Shown here in pieces: positions 3,044 through 28,356 of a stretch of DNA of 32,000 nucleotides; within the stretch, counting starts at the first letter, position 1, and each line of letters starts with the position of its first letter. The DNA is from Pasteurella multocida (GTDB taxonomy: Bacteria; Pseudomonadota; Gammaproteobacteria; Enterobacterales; Pasteurellaceae). A program made the translations under genes and the position numbers. Below the pieces are notes generated by a model that saw only the letters and a list, made by a program, of their open reading frames with translations, was not told the origin of the DNA and did no database searches. The DNA lies in assembly GCF_900187275.1 (NCBI RefSeq), contig NZ_LT906458.1, forward strand, positions 2,010,001 through 2,042,000, written 5' to 3'.

Positions 3044-3862
3044 TTAGAATGTGACATTGAACCCAACACTACCACCCCAGTATGCATTTCCTGATAATCC
3101 ACGACCTACATAAGGTGTGAGATCAATACTGCTTTTGGCGCTAATGTTATAACGTAGTGTACTGCTAATATCCCCACGTAACCATTTAAAATCGCCTTGC
3201 ATTTTCACATCACCAATGCCATCAGCTTTAGCCTGATAGTGTGGATTTTTTAATGAAAGCGCATATTCAATTTCGGCTTTAGGCTCCCAAAAGAGTTGGT
3301 TTGTTAACGGAATCGACGTTGTTATACCCAACATGGCAGCTGTATGGCGGAATTTAAGTGGTGCATAAGAAACTGGAAAAGTCACGCTTTCTTCTTGATA
3401 GCCATGTTGTTTTACTTCCGTATATTTTAACCCTGTGTATAAACCGGCATGACCACCACTCAAAATATGTGCATTGGCACCGGCGAGTAATGCGACAGAT
3501 TGGCTAGAAACGTTTGTTTTACCCTTCGCTTGTTCTGTGCCCTCAATTGCCTGACGCTCAATCTCAACCTGATAACGATTCACTGCACCTGTCGCACGGA
3601 GATACCAATGTCCATTTTCTACTGCTTGTTTCCATTGTGCATATAAACCAATCCCTAAATTATCACTTGTCCGTTTGTAACCATTGACTTGTTTACTATA
3701 TGGAGTATGGAAAAGTGCGGTACCAAGTGCAAAATTTTCATTCATGACATAACCAATATTGAGCTGAGTGAGCAAGCTACGATCTTGTTTCTCTGCATCG
3801 ACAGTAGCTTTAGTACGTACAAAAATGCGTCCAGCCTGACCTGTTGCGTACAATTTACTTGG
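3044..3862 (-). other. Autotransporter beta-barrel translocator domain (aa ~1005-1276); boundary approximate
   Basis: About 270 aa of amphipathic beta-strand pattern after a helical linker region (aa ~930-1000). Ends with an aromatic residue (F). Confidence 0.7.
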
Positions 3863-6800
3863 CTGAGTTTGACGATTGAGATGACTTGGTAAAGTGCTTT
3901 TCGCTTCAACGAAAGTATTTCTGAAATCAATACGACTGTAATCGGCTAAGGCATAAGCATTGGAATCTATTGCATCAAAGCCAGAAAAACTCTCAGTTAA
4001 TGAACTGAGTAGTCGGTTTTGGCTAGAAATCGTTGCCAATGCACGAGTACCTAACCGTCCCATTGTCTCTCTGGTGTCTTGAATTGACACTGGATCGCTC
4101 ACTTTAGGGATAGCCTGTGTATAATCAAGTTTCCACACGGTTGCTTTTTGAATTGGACGATTAAAATCATCCGTTAAGTCTGTTTCTGACACCCCAACAG
4201 CAATTGTTCCATCATGATTGAGTCCGTAAATTGCCCCTTCACCGATGCCTTCCGTTTTTAAGGTGCTGAGTACAACAGGTTTTTGGGTACTGTCATACCA
4301 TATCACTGGGCGACTAACACAATTATCATCTGGTCGATCTGTGGTTGCACAACCTTGATCAATGGCTGCGGTACCCCCAATAATATTGCCTTGTGCATTC
4401 AAGGCATAAGCAAAACTCGAACCCGCATCATGTTGATCGGACGTATAGTTGGTTAAGGATTTTAAATAGGTATGATGCCAGTTTTCGCTTCGTCCTTTGT
4501 TTTGCCCATTATTTTTCCATAAGACAGCTTGGTTTTGTTTCACATTCGGACTGACTTGTGTATAACCTATCGCCACTGAGCCATCTGCGTTCAATGCATG
4601 TACAGCACCATTAAAGTTGTGTTTCGTGTCCACATTTAAACGCGTGACTTTCCAGTCCTCAGAACCATCATCTGTCCAAATCGCAGGGCGTTGATTTTTA
4701 ATAGACTGTCTTTCTAAGCGTTTTCCAATAAAATCGGCACTGCCTGCAATCACTTGACCGTCATGACTAATGGTTCGGGCATCAGCGGATGGTGTATAGT
4801 AAGTGCTATTGCTAAAAGGTGTTTCTAAGCGAATCGGTTTACTACCTTCCTGCCATTGTGTTCCCTCTCGTTTCCATAATACGGCTTGTTTCGCTCGTGG
4901 ATCAAAAGTGTAATCGATTGGCGCGATACTTTGTCCTACGGCAAAGGCACCATCGGCACTTAGTGCACTGACTTTACCTGACACCTGTGTGGGATTATCA
5001 ATCAGATTATTCACCGCACCCATCCCATTTAGCCCAAGTGTATCGAGGCGAGTTGGATGGTCGTGACCGTTTTGCCAAATTGCAGGGTACTTAGAAATCA
5101 CTTTTCGGTTGTCTGCTTTGCGGAAGTAATGACTACGCGCTTCGCCACCATAAGTGAGCCCATCATGGCTGATCGCCCACACAGCAGCATGGTTTGTGTT
5201 GCCTTCAAAATTGCGTAACGCAATAGTTTGCCCCTCTTTCCAAATGGTTGCCGCACCGCCGCGTTCTGTACGGCTTTCACCTATTCCGCCGATGACGCGT
5301 CCATCACCAGAAATTGTCATCGCAAAAGAATAGCCCAGGACGGTTGAGGTCGGGGTTTCTACTGAACTGACCGTATAAGTAATAGGTGCTTGCTCAGGTG
5401 TTGATGGTAACGTATTCAGCTTTGGTGTATCTGGTTGCGTCGGCTTAGGTGATGTCGGCGCTTCAGGGAGCGGTGTTTTGGGATAAGTAATTTTCCATAC
5501 CACGGCTTTTTGTGTTCTGGCATAGCCATCTGTCAAATCAGTATCAGCGACACCGACTGCAATGGTACCATCATCATTGAGAGCATAGACCGCACCATTG
5601 CCCGAACCATCCGCTTTTAAGGTATTTAATTCTAGCGGTTTGCTAGTAGTGTTATACCATACAACAGGACGTGCGATGCAGTTATCATCTGGTTTTTCAG
5701 TTGTGGCACAATCTTGTTCAGTGGTGGCAATTCCCCCGACAATAGAACCATCTTTATTTAAACTATAAGCAAAACTGGAACCAGCATCATGTTCTTCCGC
5801 ACGATGATGTGTGAGGGATTTTAAATAAGTAAAAGTCCAGTTTTCACTGACGGATTTATCTTGTCCGTTATTTTTCCATACGACCGCTTGATTACGTTTT
5901 ACATCTGTTGTGGTTTGCGTATAACCTGCCACGGTGATGCCATCCGCGCTAATGGCATGTGCCATGCCGTTAAAATTATCATGCTCTTCAACAGGTAAAC
6001 GAGTGACTTTCCAATCGCTTAAATTTTCACTTGTCCAAATAGTAGGGCGTTGATCTTTACTAAATGACGTATTTTTATTGACCGCTTTAATCCAATCTGC
6101 GCTACCGGCAATGACATTTCCAGCATGACTAATGGCATTGGCATTCGCACTTGGGGCGTAATAATCACTTTTTTCATAAGGAGTAGGCAATATTTCTGGT
6201 TTCGTACCTGTTATCCAACCGTTTTCTCCACGTTTCCAAAGTACCGCCAATGTTGTGCTACTTTCATTGTAGCTGTCTTTTTCTGGAATACTCTGTCCTA
6301 TCGCAATCGATCCATTTGCACTGAGCGCATTGACTTTGCCTGATACGGTTGTATTGTCACCTGCTCGATTGCCAATGGTACCGAGCCCCCCTTGTCTTAT
6401 TGTCGCTAGACGAATTGGTTTGTCATTGTCGGCTAACCAAATAGCCGGAAATCTTGCTTTGAAATCCCTTGTTGTAAAACCTGCTTTTCCTCGATAGCTA
6501 TACAGTGCTTCACCGGCATAAGTTGAACCATCGTGGCTAACTGCCCAAATGGCCGCATTATTTGCTTTATAGGATGTTGGATGTACCTTTGTTTCGTCGT
6601 AGTAGGCTCTCCCAAAATTCATGAATTCTTTTATCGTTCCATTTTGCCAAATGACGGCAGCACCTGCGCGCTCATGGCTACCTTCGCCAATCCCGCCGAT
6701 CACGTTACCGTCACCAGAAATGGCACGTGCGCTAGAGAAGTAAAAGTTTTTAGCTGAGTTTATGTCATTTGTTAGTAATGTCGGTGTCATTGATTCAGCG

Positions 6801-6874
6801 TGAGTTGTGAAAGGCAGAAAAAACGTTGAAATGAAGAGGGAAAGGTAAGTTCGTTGATATTGTCTGTTGTTCAT
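3044..6874 (-). CDS. Type Va autotransporter with a duplicated HAF-like repeat passenger domain
   Basis: 1276 aa with SD ggag 6 nt before the ATG. Signal peptide MNNRQYQRTYLSLFISTFFLPFTTHA/ES. Fourteen repeats, a Pro-rich hinge, and a C-terminal domain of alternating hydrophobic strands ending GFNVTF (terminal Phe). Confidence 0.85.
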   Translation of the reverse strand: MNNRQYQRTYLSLFISTFFLPFTTHAESMTPTLLTNDINSAKNFYFSSARAISGDGNVIGGIGEGSHERAGAAVIWQNGTIKEFMNFGRAYYDETKVHPTSYKANNAAIWAVSHDGSTYAGEALYSYRGKAGFTTRDFKARFPAIWLADNDKPIRLATIRQGGLGTIGNRAGDNTTVSGKVNALSANGSIAIGQSIPEKDSYNESSTTLAVLWKRGENGWITGTKPEILPTPYEKSDYYAPSANANAISHAGNVIAGSADWIKAVNKNTSFSKDQRPTIWTSENLSDWKVTRLPVEEHDNFNGMAHAISADGITVAGYTQTTTDVKRNQAVVWKNNGQDKSVSENWTFTYLKSLTHHRAEEHDAGSSFAYSLNKDGSIVGGIATTEQDCATTEKPDDNCIARPVVWYNTTSKPLELNTLKADGSGNGAVYALNDDGTIAVGVADTDLTDGYARTQKAVVWKITYPKTPLPEAPTSPKPTQPDTPKLNTLPSTPEQAPITYTVSSVETPTSTVLGYSFAMTISGDGRVIGGIGESRTERGGAATIWKEGQTIALRNFEGNTNHAAVWAISHDGLTYGGEARSHYFRKADNRKVISKYPAIWQNGHDHPTRLDTLGLNGMGAVNNLIDNPTQVSGKVSALSADGAFAVGQSIAPIDYTFDPRAKQAVLWKREGTQWQEGSKPIRLETPFSNSTYYTPSADARTISHDGQVIAGSADFIGKRLERQSIKNQRPAIWTDDGSEDWKVTRLNVDTKHNFNGAVHALNADGSVAIGYTQVSPNVKQNQAVLWKNNGQNKGRSENWHHTYLKSLTNYTSDQHDAGSSFAYALNAQGNIIGGTAAIDQGCATTDRPDDNCVSRPVIWYDSTQKPVVLSTLKTEGIGEGAIYGLNHDGTIAVGVSETDLTDDFNRPIQKATVWKLDYTQAIPKVSDPVSIQDTRETMGRLGTRALATISSQNRLLSSLTESFSGFDAIDSNAYALADYSRIDFRNTFVEAKSTLPSHLNRQTQPSKLYATGQAGRIFVRTKATVDAEKQDRSLLTQLNIGYVMNENFALGTALFHTPYSKQVNGYKRTSDNLGIGLYAQWKQAVENGHWYLRATGAVNRYQVEIERQAIEGTEQAKGKTNVSSQSVALLAGANAHILSGGHAGLYTGLKYTEVKQHGYQEESVTFPVSYAPLKFRHTAAMLGITTSIPLTNQLFWEPKAEIEYALSLKNPHYQAKADGIGDVKMQGDFKWLRGDISSTLRYNISAKSSIDLTPYVGRGLSGNAYWGGSVGFNVTF
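4121..5332 (-). repeat. Passenger module 2 (aa ~515-918): a paralogous copy of module 1 with seven HAF-like repeats
   Basis: Colinear with module 1 repeat for repeat: ISGDGRVIGG..AATIW, ISHDGLTYGG..PAIW, LSADGAFAVG..QAVLW, ISHDGQVIAG..PAIW, LNADGSVAIG..QAVLW, LNAQGNIIGG..RPVIW, LNHDGTIAVG..KATVW. Confidence 0.8.
5483..6739 (-). repeat. Passenger module 1 (aa ~46-464): seven HAF-like repeats
   Basis: Repeat cores: ISGDGNVIGG..AAVIW, VSHDGSTYAG..PAIW, LSANGSIAIG..LAVLW, ISHAGNVIAG..PTIW, ISADGITVAG..QAVVW, LNKDGSIVGG..RPVVW, LNDDGTIAVG..KAVVW. Confidence 0.8.
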
Positions 6875-7042: not shown

Positions 7043-9049
7043 TTAGAACATATATTTGACATTAGCAAAGTACACTCGACCTTCTTCTGGCATACCATAA
7101 GTGTAGTAATAGTTTTTATCAAAAATATTATTGATTCCTGCATCAATGACAAAGTTGGATGTAGCTTGATAAGTCAATTTAGTATTGGTTACTCCAAATC
7201 CAGCCACTTTGGTTGTATTCGCTTTGATTTGTCTATTAGGGATACGGTCAAGACTATAACGTCCAGTTTCAGCTTCTTGACTGACATAAAGTGAAAGGTT
7301 TGGTAAGACTTTCCAATCGGCATATACAAAGACTTTATGTCTTGGGATATGGTGAATAATCATCTCTTTATGCGTACGGTTTTTCGCCCGTAAATACGTA
7401 TAGTTTGCCCCTAAAGTCAGGTTATCCGTGACAAAAGCTGTGGCAGCCAACTCAATCCCTTTGCGAATTTCTTTACCATAATTCTGATTTTGTTTTAAAT
7501 TATCTGGATGATTAGGAATAACTACTTCTTCAATCGCATCATGAACATCGCTATAGAACAATGCGCCTTCTAAACGTAACCAGTCATTGAAAGTACGTAA
7601 ATAACTTACTTCATAGTGATAGGCTGTTTCAGGTCCAAGGAATGGATTAGGTTCTACACTACCAAATCGACGAGAATAGCGTTCTTTCATTGTGGGTAGG
7701 TGTGTCTTTTTCGCAAAGCTGGCAGCAAATTCATCATTTTTATCAAAGCGATGGCTTAATTTGATTTGATAATTCAGTGCGTGTTGATTGCCCAGTTTGA
7801 ATGGATTAATTGATTTTGGGGCATTTTTGCCTTTTGATTTTACATCAAACTTCTCAGCACGATTGGCTTTACGATAATCATAGCTGATCCCTGATATCAA
7901 TTGCGTATTGCTTGCTAATTGATAGGTATGTTCTAGTCCAATACTGTAAGTTTGATCTTTATTTTTTGTCACCGGATCATTGTTGTCATGTTCTCGGTGT
8001 ATATCTGCTTTATAGTTTAGTGCCAATTTTAAGGTGTGTTGTGTGGTTAAGTCCGCGCCCAATTCAATACCTGCGCCATAGGAATAATCGCGGTAGTAGC
8101 TAGTATCAGCAGTAGTAAAAGTCGCATCTTTAAACATGTCTAAGTCATTTTTGAAAGTATCATAGAATACTTTGCTATTGATATAGGCATTATGTGGGGC
8201 AAATTGAGTATGTGATAAGAAATAGAGGCTGTCTTTATCCCATGCATTCCAACGCCAAAAACGCCCTGCACTTTGGTGTTCGCCAGCATAGAAGGGCTGT
8301 TCTTTTTTTGCTTTTTGTGTGCTTAGCACGAAGGCATATTCATCGGTATTATTTGGCGTATAAGCCAGTTTTAAACTTAATTTTTTATCACGATGCACCG
8401 ATTGCTCAGCTCGTCCACCGTCTTCCAAGCTTTTACCTTGCTGTTTATAGTGATGAGAAAGTTGTAACCCTTGTCGCTCAACAAAGCTGCCGTTGATCTG
8501 AGCATAAAATTGTTCTTGCTTGCTACCTAGGCTGAAATAAGTTTGGTTGGTACTTGTTTTGGCATCGCGTCCTTTTTGAAAGCCATAACCAAGTGTACCT
8601 TCTAGTGGTTTAGTTGGTTTACGACTGATTAAATTAATTGCCCCGCCCATCGTATTTGGACCATATAGCACGGCGCTTGCGCCTTTAGAAATATCAATAC
8701 GTGAGAGATCAAAAGTGCTGAAACGACCTAAGTCCATATTGCCATCATAAGGCACATATACAGGGATACCATCAATGTATATAGGGACACGACGAGCATC
8801 AAAGCCTCGTACATTAATGTTTTGCTCACTGCGTGCGCCAATACGTTCAAAACTTACTCCTGGTGTTATTTTGGCGACTTTAGCAACATTCGTAATATTG
8901 TTTTTCTCGAGCGCTTGGTATTCAAGGCGTGTCGTGGTGAGATCGCTACTGTTATCCGCAATGACTTCAATTTGTCCAAGTTGAAAGATATGTGCATAAC
9001 TTGATGCGCAAACGAGCGTAATTACACTATAAAGAAAAGTTTTTTGCAT
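7043..9049 (-). CDS. TonB-dependent outer-membrane receptor
   Basis: Start moved to ATG 9049 (MQKTFLYSVITLVCASSYA signal peptide, SD agga in the 10-nt gap). Has plug-domain motifs (NVRGF, IDGIPV), the general TBDR motif RRFG..PNPFLGPE, and a C-terminal YMF. Confidence 0.85.
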   Translation of the reverse strand: MQKTFLYSVITLVCASSYAHIFQLGQIEVIADNSSDLTTTRLEYQALEKNNITNVAKVAKITPGVSFERIGARSEQNINVRGFDARRVPIYIDGIPVYVPYDGNMDLGRFSTFDLSRIDISKGASAVLYGPNTMGGAINLISRKPTKPLEGTLGYGFQKGRDAKTSTNQTYFSLGSKQEQFYAQINGSFVERQGLQLSHHYKQQGKSLEDGGRAEQSVHRDKKLSLKLAYTPNNTDEYAFVLSTQKAKKEQPFYAGEHQSAGRFWRWNAWDKDSLYFLSHTQFAPHNAYINSKVFYDTFKNDLDMFKDATFTTADTSYYRDYSYGAGIELGADLTTQHTLKLALNYKADIHREHDNNDPVTKNKDQTYSIGLEHTYQLASNTQLISGISYDYRKANRAEKFDVKSKGKNAPKSINPFKLGNQHALNYQIKLSHRFDKNDEFAASFAKKTHLPTMKERYSRRFGSVEPNPFLGPETAYHYEVSYLRTFNDWLRLEGALFYSDVHDAIEEVVIPNHPDNLKQNQNYGKEIRKGIELAATAFVTDNLTLGANYTYLRAKNRTHKEMIIHHIPRHKVFVYADWKVLPNLSLYVSQEAETGRYSLDRIPNRQIKANTTKVAGFGVTNTKLTYQATSNFVIDAGINNIFDKNYYYTYGMPEEGRVYFANVKYMF

Positions 9050-9571: not shown

Positions 9572-9590
9572 ATTATAGAGTATCATTATA
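9572..9590 (-). promoter_or_regulatory. Fur-box-like sequence overlapping a TATAAT -10 hexamer
   Basis: The - strand reads tataatgatactctataat, a 13/19 match to GATAATGATAATCATTATC. It lies 36-54 nt upstream of the ATG at 9536. Confidence 0.4.
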
Positions 9591-13967: not shown

Positions 13968-15247
13968 ACTGTTTTACTTAAATAAGGATCTAATAAATCT
14001 AACAAACGTTGTAAGGCGCCACGATTTTCAATCAGGACTTCATAACCCGCATTGCCATAACGCTTACGTAATTCTTGTGAATCTAGAAATTTTTCGACTG
14101 CATTGGTCAGGGCTTTGGTGTTTTCATTCACTTCTAATACGCCTTGTACTTGCAACAGTTTTGTAAACACTTCAGGGAAGTTAAAGGTGTATTTACCACT
14201 GATGACAGGTAATTTAAAGGCAAGTGGTTCGAGTGGATTATGTCCCCCATGCTTAACCAAACTGCCTCCCACAAAAGCAATATCGGCAAGCCCATACATC
14301 AACATCAGCTCACCCATGGTATCACCAAGTACAACTTGAGTTGAGCTATCGGGCGTAACATGATCGCTACGACGAACGTAAGTCAATTTATGTTTTTTAA
14401 TTAATTCCGCCACCATATTAAAGCGTTCTGGATGACGAGGGACAAGAATTAACAATAGATTTGGGTATTTATGTAGTAAGAGACGATGAGTTTCTAAGAT
14501 AAGATCTTCTTCTCCCTCATGTGTACTTGCCGCGATCCACACCGGGCGTTGGTCAACCCAAGCCTGTTTGAGTGACGCAACTTGTTGCATCAGCGCATCG
14601 TTGAGTACTAAATCATATTTGATGTTGCCGGTTAATTTTAAACGTTGCGCATCATAACCGAGCGATAAATAACGTTGAGCACTGACGTTATCTTGTGATG
14701 CAATTAGACTGATGTGATCAAAAATGTGATGTAGTGCGCCTTTGAACCAGTGATAACGCTGTGTTGAACGTGCGGATAAACGCGCATTAGCAATAATAAA
14801 CGGAATGGCTTGTTTTTTGAGTTGCACAATTAAATTCGGCCAAATTTCAGTTTCAATCACAATACAGACTTTCGGTTGCACAAAGGCAATAAAACGGTTA
14901 ACGGCATCCGGTAAATCGTAAGGTAAGTAAAAGTGAGTAACACTGTCGCCAAAGGCGGCCTTTACTCGATCAGAGCCGGTGGGTGTCACCGTGGTGACTG
15001 TCAGGGGTAACGTCGGATAAAGGGCTTGCAGACGCTTAATCAGTGGCGTTGCTGCAATAACCTCGCCCACAGAAGCCGCATGGATGACAACACCATTTGC
15101 TTTTGGTGGTACTGCACCACAATAAAAGCCATAACGTTCATTAAGGCGTTTACGGTAATTTGGGGCTTTTAAGCTACGTCCTAGCATAAATAAGACAACC
15201 AAAGGTTGAATCAAATACATTAAGACGGTATAGACGAAACGTAACAT
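13964..15247 (-). CDS. waaA: Kdo transferase
   Basis: 427 aa with an N-terminal membrane anchor and a GT30-like sequence ([20 protein letters not shown]). Confidence 0.93.
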
Positions 15248-28280: not shown

Positions 28281-28356
28281 GCCTCGATAGCTCAGTCGGT
28301 AGAGCAGGGGATTGAAAATCCCCGTGTCGGTGGTTCGATTCCGCCTCGAGGCACCA
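28281..28356 (+). tRNA. tRNA-Phe (anticodon GAA)
   Basis: 76 nt. Acceptor stem GCCTCGA/TCGAGGC, anticodon loop aTTGAAAAt, T-loop GGTTCGATTCC, encoded CCA. Near-identical to E. coli tRNA-Phe. Confidence 0.97.

Follow-up and report, generated by a model that had tools for sequence, protein, structure and literature searches.

A Pasteurella multocida HAF/Xat-type autotransporter with two predicted β-propellers in its passenger

The window analysed here is a 32,000-nucleotide stretch of the Pasteurella multocida chromosome (contig NZ_LT906458.1, positions 2,010,001 through 2,042,000), within which an earlier note, made from the sequence alone, had placed an unusual autotransporter gene at positions 3044 through 6874. 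The open reading frame (ORF) list and the translation bear these coordinates out: the interval holds a single ORF on the minus strand (3044 through 6874, stop codon included) encoding 1276 residues, and its plus-strand frame is full of stops. Exactly this protein occurs on 321 public contigs, alongside 180 close variants; existing annotation names it “outer membrane autotransporter barrel protein” or “autotransporter subunit beta.” Sequence comparison and structural models point to a domain order of Sec-type leader, first β-propeller, disordered linker, second β-propeller, a helix of ∼30 residues, and an autotransporter barrel. The protein is a variant of the known HAF/Xat family, not a new kind of protein.

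The gene and its start site

The N terminus (MNNRQYQRTYLSLFISTFFLPFTTHA, followed by ES) reads by eye as a Sec-type leader, with a basic n-region, a hydrophobic core, and small residues at −1 and −3; the predicted signal peptide, assigned by inspection of the translation, spans residues 1 through 26 (6797 through 6874, minus strand) with cleavage after Thr-His-Ala. At the other end the protein closes with GFNVTF, so both the leader and the C-terminal Phe described in the note are present. A Shine-Dalgarno-like GGAG (6881 through 6884, minus strand), read from the sequence, lies ∼7 nt upstream of the ATG at 6874. Farther out, ∼50 nt upstream of the ATG, the top site of a consensus scan is a sigma-70-like promoter match, TTGACA-16-TAGGAT (6924 through 6951, minus strand; score 10/12), which is a match to consensus only; four strains share the same sequence across this region. 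A check for phase variation found neither tandem nor simple repeats within or upstream of the gene.

Many P. multocida records carry a 1248-residue product that starts at Met29 and so has no signal peptide; in two of the loci compared (L008 and L010), for example, the shorter and longer starts fall at 15100 and 15184, equivalent to window positions 6790 and 6874. These shorter “variants” were ruled out as leaderless alleles, the DNA of their start region being identical to that of strains annotated at 1276 residues, and the 1248-residue products are therefore start-site annotation miscalls. The longer start is favoured because GGAG precedes the ATG at 6874.

Passenger repeats, predicted fold and translocator

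The passenger is built from two modules of seven HAF-like repeats. Module 1 covers residues 40 through 466 (5477 through 6757, minus strand), with repeat cores at residues 52, 112, 184, 248, 308, 372, and 432; module 2 covers residues 512 through 920 (4115 through 5341, minus strand), with cores at residues 521, 568, 638, 702, 761, 825, and 885. The 14 repeats proposed earlier are real: the core pattern given for them fits 8 of the 14 as written and 11 when slightly relaxed. The three remaining cores, LNDDGTIAVG (residue 432), LSADGAFAVG (residue 638), and LNHDGTIAVG (residue 885), deviate only in the final Val-Gly. Sixteen copies of the end motif [AP][AVT][IVL]W are present, at all 14 blade ends and at two blade-2 starts. 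Shuffled sequences yield 0.003 core matches and 0.165 end-motif matches. Residues 40 through 466 and 515 through 918 align colinearly (51% identity over 445 residues, E 1e-151), each with seven cores and seven Trp-containing ends, which confirms the proposal of two colinear seven-repeat modules. The conserved passenger positions are the structural residues of the repeat (Gly, Asp-Gly, and Trp).

The whole protein contains only four Cys, arranged as two close pairs at matching positions of the two modules: Cys389-x9-Cys399 in blade 6 of module 1 (5678 through 5710, minus strand) and Cys842-x9-Cys852 in blade 6 of module 2 (4319 through 4351, minus strand). Both pairs are invariant among close homologues, and each is a putative disulphide. 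Autotransporter secretion generally tolerates only small disulphide loops, and because of this the short C-x9-C spacing fits with export by this route.

The note had further assigned the repeats to the HAF family. Scored directly against TIGR02913 (HAF_rpt), the whole protein reaches 22.2 bits and two passenger segments reach 21.9 and 17.1, below the curated cutoff of 22.65 bits; the direct match thus falls short. By transitive homology, on the other hand, the repeats can clearly be classed as HAF-type, because significant homologues pass TIGR02913 strongly and a repeat hidden Markov model (HMM) derived from them recognises 12 of the 14 repeats. Specifically, the module profile matches seven single-module autotransporter homologues at E 1e-40 to 1e-11, and these score 86 through 268 bits on TIGR02913; XatA of Xylella fastidiosa, considered below, also passes (37.6 bits). 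Trained on bona fide HAF autotransporters, the repeat HMM picks out six repeats in each module at an independent E-value (i-E) below 0.05.

Two AlphaFold2 (AF2) models were examined, one of module 2 with the barrel (residues 505 through 1276; mean predicted local distance difference test score [pLDDT] 82.6, predicted template modelling score [pTM] 0.78) and one of the whole passenger (mean pLDDT 75.1, pTM 0.50). The lower pTM of the passenger is as expected, because it comprises two independent domains. In these models each module is all-β and forms seven groups of ∼4 strands, and between the modules a Pro/Thr/Ser-rich linker (residues 467 through 511; 5342 through 5476, minus strand) is predicted to be disordered, with pLDDT <50 at model residues 439 through 484 (residues 466 through 511). 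All passenger matches listed by Foldseek are β-propeller-containing proteins, including tandem double-propeller WD proteins, two-propeller GH74 enzymes, and the seven-bladed propellers of acylaminoacyl and prolyl oligopeptidases; single-propeller matches include the enzyme CylK and peptidase-associated propellers. Pfam scans of the whole protein and of the C-terminal region matched no passenger-associated family. The passenger is thus predicted to consist of two independent seven-bladed β-propellers, in agreement with the earlier suggestion of two propeller-like domains.

That reading leaves little room for a conventional right-handed β-helix with degenerate repeats. Most type Va passengers are β-helices (PMC9289746), and this is what speaks for such a fold here. 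Set against it are a period of 45 to 70 residues, the four strands per repeat in blade-like groups in both AF2 models, and the absence of any β-helix from the passenger Foldseek matches listed; the β-helix is effectively refuted, and the contention that the passenger departs from this fold holds.

Downstream of module 2, an α-helical linker (residues 931 through 976; 3947 through 4084, minus strand; helices at model residues 427 through 457 and 461 through 472) is presumed to be the pore-spanning translocator helix. In the AF2 model a 31-residue helix (residues 931 through 961) leads into another, shorter one, after which a stretch of low confidence precedes the barrel, which starts at residue 1017. 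The C-terminal autotransporter β-barrel occupies residues 1017 through 1276 (3047 through 3826, minus strand) and ends in the terminal Phe. When the C-terminal 318 residues are searched alone, PF03797 is found at 60.5 bits (E 2.8e-16; cutoff 26). A Pfam scan of the whole protein reported no autotransporter domain, a filter artefact given that the isolated C terminus recovers the domain. Automated domain annotation under-calls this autotransporter; the precomputed Pfam field for it is also empty in public collections.

Searched against the Protein Data Bank (PDB), the family profile finds the NalP translocator at 1.1e-8, with an alignment that begins in the helical-linker region; whole-protein and single-sequence searches of the PDB gave nothing useful, so that a profile was needed. 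The best Foldseek match of the barrel is EstA (2.7e-10), and NalP (target-normalised TM-score 0.68 to 0.69), AaaA, EspP, AIDA-I, and BrkA are also among its top matches; 12-strand barrels match better than the 14-strand OmpG or FadL. From this homology we infer twelve barrel strands. Together, the Pfam, profile, and Foldseek matches uphold the barrel assignment made in the note and support the protein as a probable classical (type Va) autotransporter.

Two observations concern the junction of helix and barrel. In single-module relatives, XatA among them, a conserved Cys-x(6-9)-Cys loop sits just ahead of the barrel, after the helix and before the first strand; the P. multocida protein lacks this loop. 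In the two-module Pasteurella proteins this position is taken by a longer, Cys-free, low-confidence segment (residues 962 through 1016; window 3827 through 3991).

Relatives, XatA and duplication of the module

Bisgaard Taxon 46 (63% identity) and one further assembly (69%) have orthologues with two modules, and the homologue in Pasteurellaceae strain LIM206 (773 residues) has a single module. A contig scan with one peptide pattern returned two loci only and says little about distribution. An exhaustive search with the module profile retrieved 1248 representative proteins at E ≤ 1e-3; among the best 169 of these, 87 have a homologous barrel, mostly in single-module proteins of 680 to 810 residues. 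HAF autotransporters form dozens of clusters at 50% identity, in Enterobacter, Citrobacter, Xylella, and metagenomes.

One member of the X. fastidiosa cluster, AAO28401.1, has 733 residues, equal to the published length of XatA; on this length and its accession numbering, we take it to be XatA. Module 2 and the barrel of the P. multocida protein align with it end to end (BLASTP E 4e-46, 27% identity, 673 columns), and the two proteins have in common a Sec leader, HAF/LGxL-type repeats, a predicted β-propeller, a helix, a PF03797-type barrel, and a terminal Phe. They differ in that XatA has one repeat module, with six repeats counted in its published description, whereas the P. multocida protein has two modules of seven; our repeat HMM counts eight repeats in a close relative of XatA. 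Repeats of the XatA/HAF type are ∼50 residues long, whereas the Pasteurella blades are longer and more irregular (45 to 70 residues). The P. multocida protein would thus belong with the Xat family, its passenger and AT-1 barrel both being homologous, although it has two modules where that family has one.

XatA (PD0528) and XatB define the Xat family of AT-1 autotransporters in X. fastidiosa (PMC3426408). XatA is located in the outer membrane and in vesicles, its passenger also occurring in the supernatant; autoaggregation, biofilm, and the symptoms of Pierce’s disease all depend on XatA, which is also sufficient for aggregation of Escherichia coli (PMC3426408). A 2022 review places it among the adhesins (PMC9289746). 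The note had known of no characterised autotransporter with such a passenger; XatA, homologous at E 4e-46, is one, and that claim falls.

“HAF family autotransporter” was in use as an annotation label by 2010 at the latest (PMC2873915; see also PMC8685578). HAF-repeat autotransporters (TIGR02913/IPR014262), such as C. pneumoniae CPK_ORF00201 and a protein of Agrobacterium tomkonis, have the same domain combination, but most of them carry regular repeats of ∼50 residues with strong HAF scores, whereas the P. multocida protein is diverged (22.2 bits) and duplicated. Globular passengers are also found outside the family. P. multocida itself has NanB, an autotransporter with a BNR repeat-like sialidase domain, PF13088 (PMC5447721). 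Like the protein studied here, NanB and the P. aeruginosa proteins EstA and AaaA are type Va autotransporters with a globular, non-β-helix passenger; unlike it, they have passengers of unrelated folds and families with known enzymatic activity and no sequence homology to HAF modules. The BNR repeat-like sialidase domain of NanB is a β-propeller.

In a neighbour-joining tree of modules, the first modules group together, the second modules group together, and the LIM206 module lies outside both, pointing to a single duplication before the split of P. multocida and Bisgaard Taxon 46. Each module is 66 to 75% conserved between species, compared with 54% between modules. Other multi-module proteins exist. 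P0024, a metagenomic protein of 1088 residues, has 7+7 canonical HAF repeats together with Pro-rich spacers and the same barrel as the Pasteurella protein; its modules share 75% identity with one another and no more than ∼27% with the Pasteurella modules. P0025, a protein of 2301 residues from a metagenome assembly, has ∼5 tandem propeller-like modules, each ending in W-K/R-x-x-Y, again with Pro-rich spacers and followed by one barrel of the same kind, and is the largest form of HAF autotransporter seen. The duplications in P0024 and P0025 are independent of that in Pasteurella.

A literature search found no paper on multi-propeller HAF autotransporters. What appears to be undescribed in print is only the tandem two-module arrangement, which recurs in other lineages. 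On a milder alternative reading, HAF autotransporters could represent a modular class of passengers, so far unrecognised, which expands through whole-propeller duplication (one, two, or ∼5 modules).

Genomic setting and proposed role

The gene lies in a strain-variable segment of ∼6.6 kb (3035 through 9694) that also contains a TonB-dependent receptor gene (7043 through 9049) and an ORF of 158 residues (9060 through 9536). The segment junctions were defined by alignment and from the junction sequences of complete P. multocida genomes. The segment is present in three of the loci compared and absent from five others, in which the M20 peptidase gene abuts the MsbA-like ABC gene. A hairpin with a 14-bp stem and T-runs (3004 through 3034), found by terminator scan between the convergent M20 peptidase and autotransporter genes, is a likely bidirectional terminator; a second hairpin follows the upstream receptor gene, so that the autotransporter gene is bracketed by hairpins. 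In Bisgaard Taxon 46 and LIM206 the homologue is flanked by other genes, with no receptor beside it. Given its own promoter-like site, the flanking hairpins, and the differing neighbours elsewhere, the gene is predicted to be transcribed alone and to need no conserved neighbour. It is an accessory gene of P. multocida.

At a probability of about 0.6, we favour a type Va HAF/Xat autotransporter with duplicated propellers on a flexible Pro/Thr-rich spacer and, by homology to XatA, a role in aggregation, biofilm, or adhesion. By analogy, the protein would most likely serve as a surface adhesin or aggregation factor. From type V biology, it would be exported by Sec, its barrel would be inserted with the help of the β-barrel assembly machinery (BAM), and the passenger would be threaded from C to N terminus, such that propeller 2 would be the first to emerge and fold, and propeller 1 the last. 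The displayed, and possibly partly released, propellers may then bind so as to bring about cell–cell aggregation, biofilm, or adhesion to host surfaces, as the homology to XatA suggests, and the second propeller may add valency or reach beyond the capsule and lipopolysaccharide (LPS).

Several points weigh against this reading. With no more than 27% identity to XatA, the protein may have another ligand or partner, and the direct TIGR02913 score is 0.45 bit too low. Ring closure, blade count, and barrel strand number derive from DSSP strings and Foldseek matches, and by DSSP the barrel has 13 strand elements, some split or kinked, not a clean 12. Shortened or split versions of the gene occur in some P. 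multocida genomes (794, 1068, and 1105+203 residues) and some strains lack it altogether, so it is dispensable, and the broken versions suggest occasional pseudogenisation. A literature search found no paper on the P. multocida gene.

The most substantial competitor, which we consider unlikely though worth keeping in view, is that the propellers are a released or tethered enzyme or a soluble binder of host factors (a hydrolase, a lectin-like toxin component, or an immune-evasion binder), the autotransporter serving for export only. Non-adhesin passengers exist, the sialidase NanB of P. multocida among them (PMC5447721), and the occurrence of the XatA passenger in the supernatant, together with the enzyme CylK and the peptidase-associated propellers among the Foldseek matches, would suit such a role. 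Yet no catalytic family was matched in Pfam or NCBIfam, the conserved residues are those of the repeat framework, and the sole characterised homologue is an aggregation and biofilm factor. Much less probable is a decaying remnant with no current function: absence from some strains and broken copies in others are what decay would leave, but the exact intact sequence and its many close variants, the conservation of both modules across species, and the intact leader, Shine-Dalgarno sequence, promoter-like site, and C-terminal Phe all argue for a maintained gene.

The co-inherited receptor raises a further alternative, in which the propellers capture a host iron or haem carrier for it in the manner of a surface lipoprotein partner. 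The autotransporter gene, the receptor gene, and the 158-residue ORF are indeed gained and lost together as the ∼6.6-kb segment, and the receptor is nearest to haem/haemoglobin receptor models (152.8 bits, below cutoff). This pairing nevertheless breaks down in Bisgaard Taxon 46 and LIM206, where no receptor is adjacent; the autotransporter gene has its own promoter-like site and a hairpin separating it from the receptor gene; members of the XatA family are stand-alone genes; and no Fur-box-like site was found upstream of the autotransporter gene, the one weak match (13/19) lying at 9572 through 9590, upstream of the 158-residue ORF. We consider such a partnership improbable, if a little less so than decay, and the specific version in which the double propeller is the receptor’s ligand-capturing partner, in a role like that of the surface lipoproteins TbpB or HpuA for receptors of other Pasteurellaceae and Neisseria, marginally more doubtful than the partnership in general. 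An operon with the receptor was likewise rejected as the principal interpretation, on the promoter-like site, the intervening hairpin, and the lack of a conserved pairing.

With the HAF/Xat autotransporter as the preferred reading, P. multocida, a veterinary and zoonotic pathogen, has a surface protein that is uncharacterised, varies between strains, and is a homologue of a plant-pathogen protein with proven roles in virulence and aggregation. It can reasonably be put forward as a candidate for an adhesin, a strain marker, or a vaccine antigen. The occurrence of one, two, or ∼5 propellers also offers a natural system for the export and folding of closed, non-β-helix domains by the type Va route. 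Neither point overturns current understanding.

Some further features of the segment and its surroundings were recorded. A foreign origin by composition was rejected on a GC content of 0.40 to 0.47, like that of the flanks, and neither junction showed mobile-element genes or direct repeats. On its right side the segment is joined within the final few codons of the MsbA-like ABC gene, whose product ends in TDTDH with the segment and in TENIGD without it. One partial protein of 319 residues from a third-party P. multocida assembly (P0006) is chimeric: its first ∼90 residues are those of the TonB-dependent receptor and run on in frame into the autotransporter at about residue 744. It reflects either a genuine deletion allele of ∼4 kb or an error of assembly. 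The 158-residue ORF (minus strand), just upstream of the receptor gene, has no Pfam or NCBIfam match and two predicted hydrophobic helices; the longest receptor ORF overlaps it, and the receptor start is called near 9049. The rest of the window (9681 through 32000) is ordinary P. multocida chromosome, with LPS inner-core genes (heptosyltransferase, Kdo kinase, coaD, and waaA), an iron-type ABC uptake system, tpiA, corA, trmB-like, mutY-like, and mltC genes, and tRNA-Phe and tRNA-Asn at 28281 through 28436.

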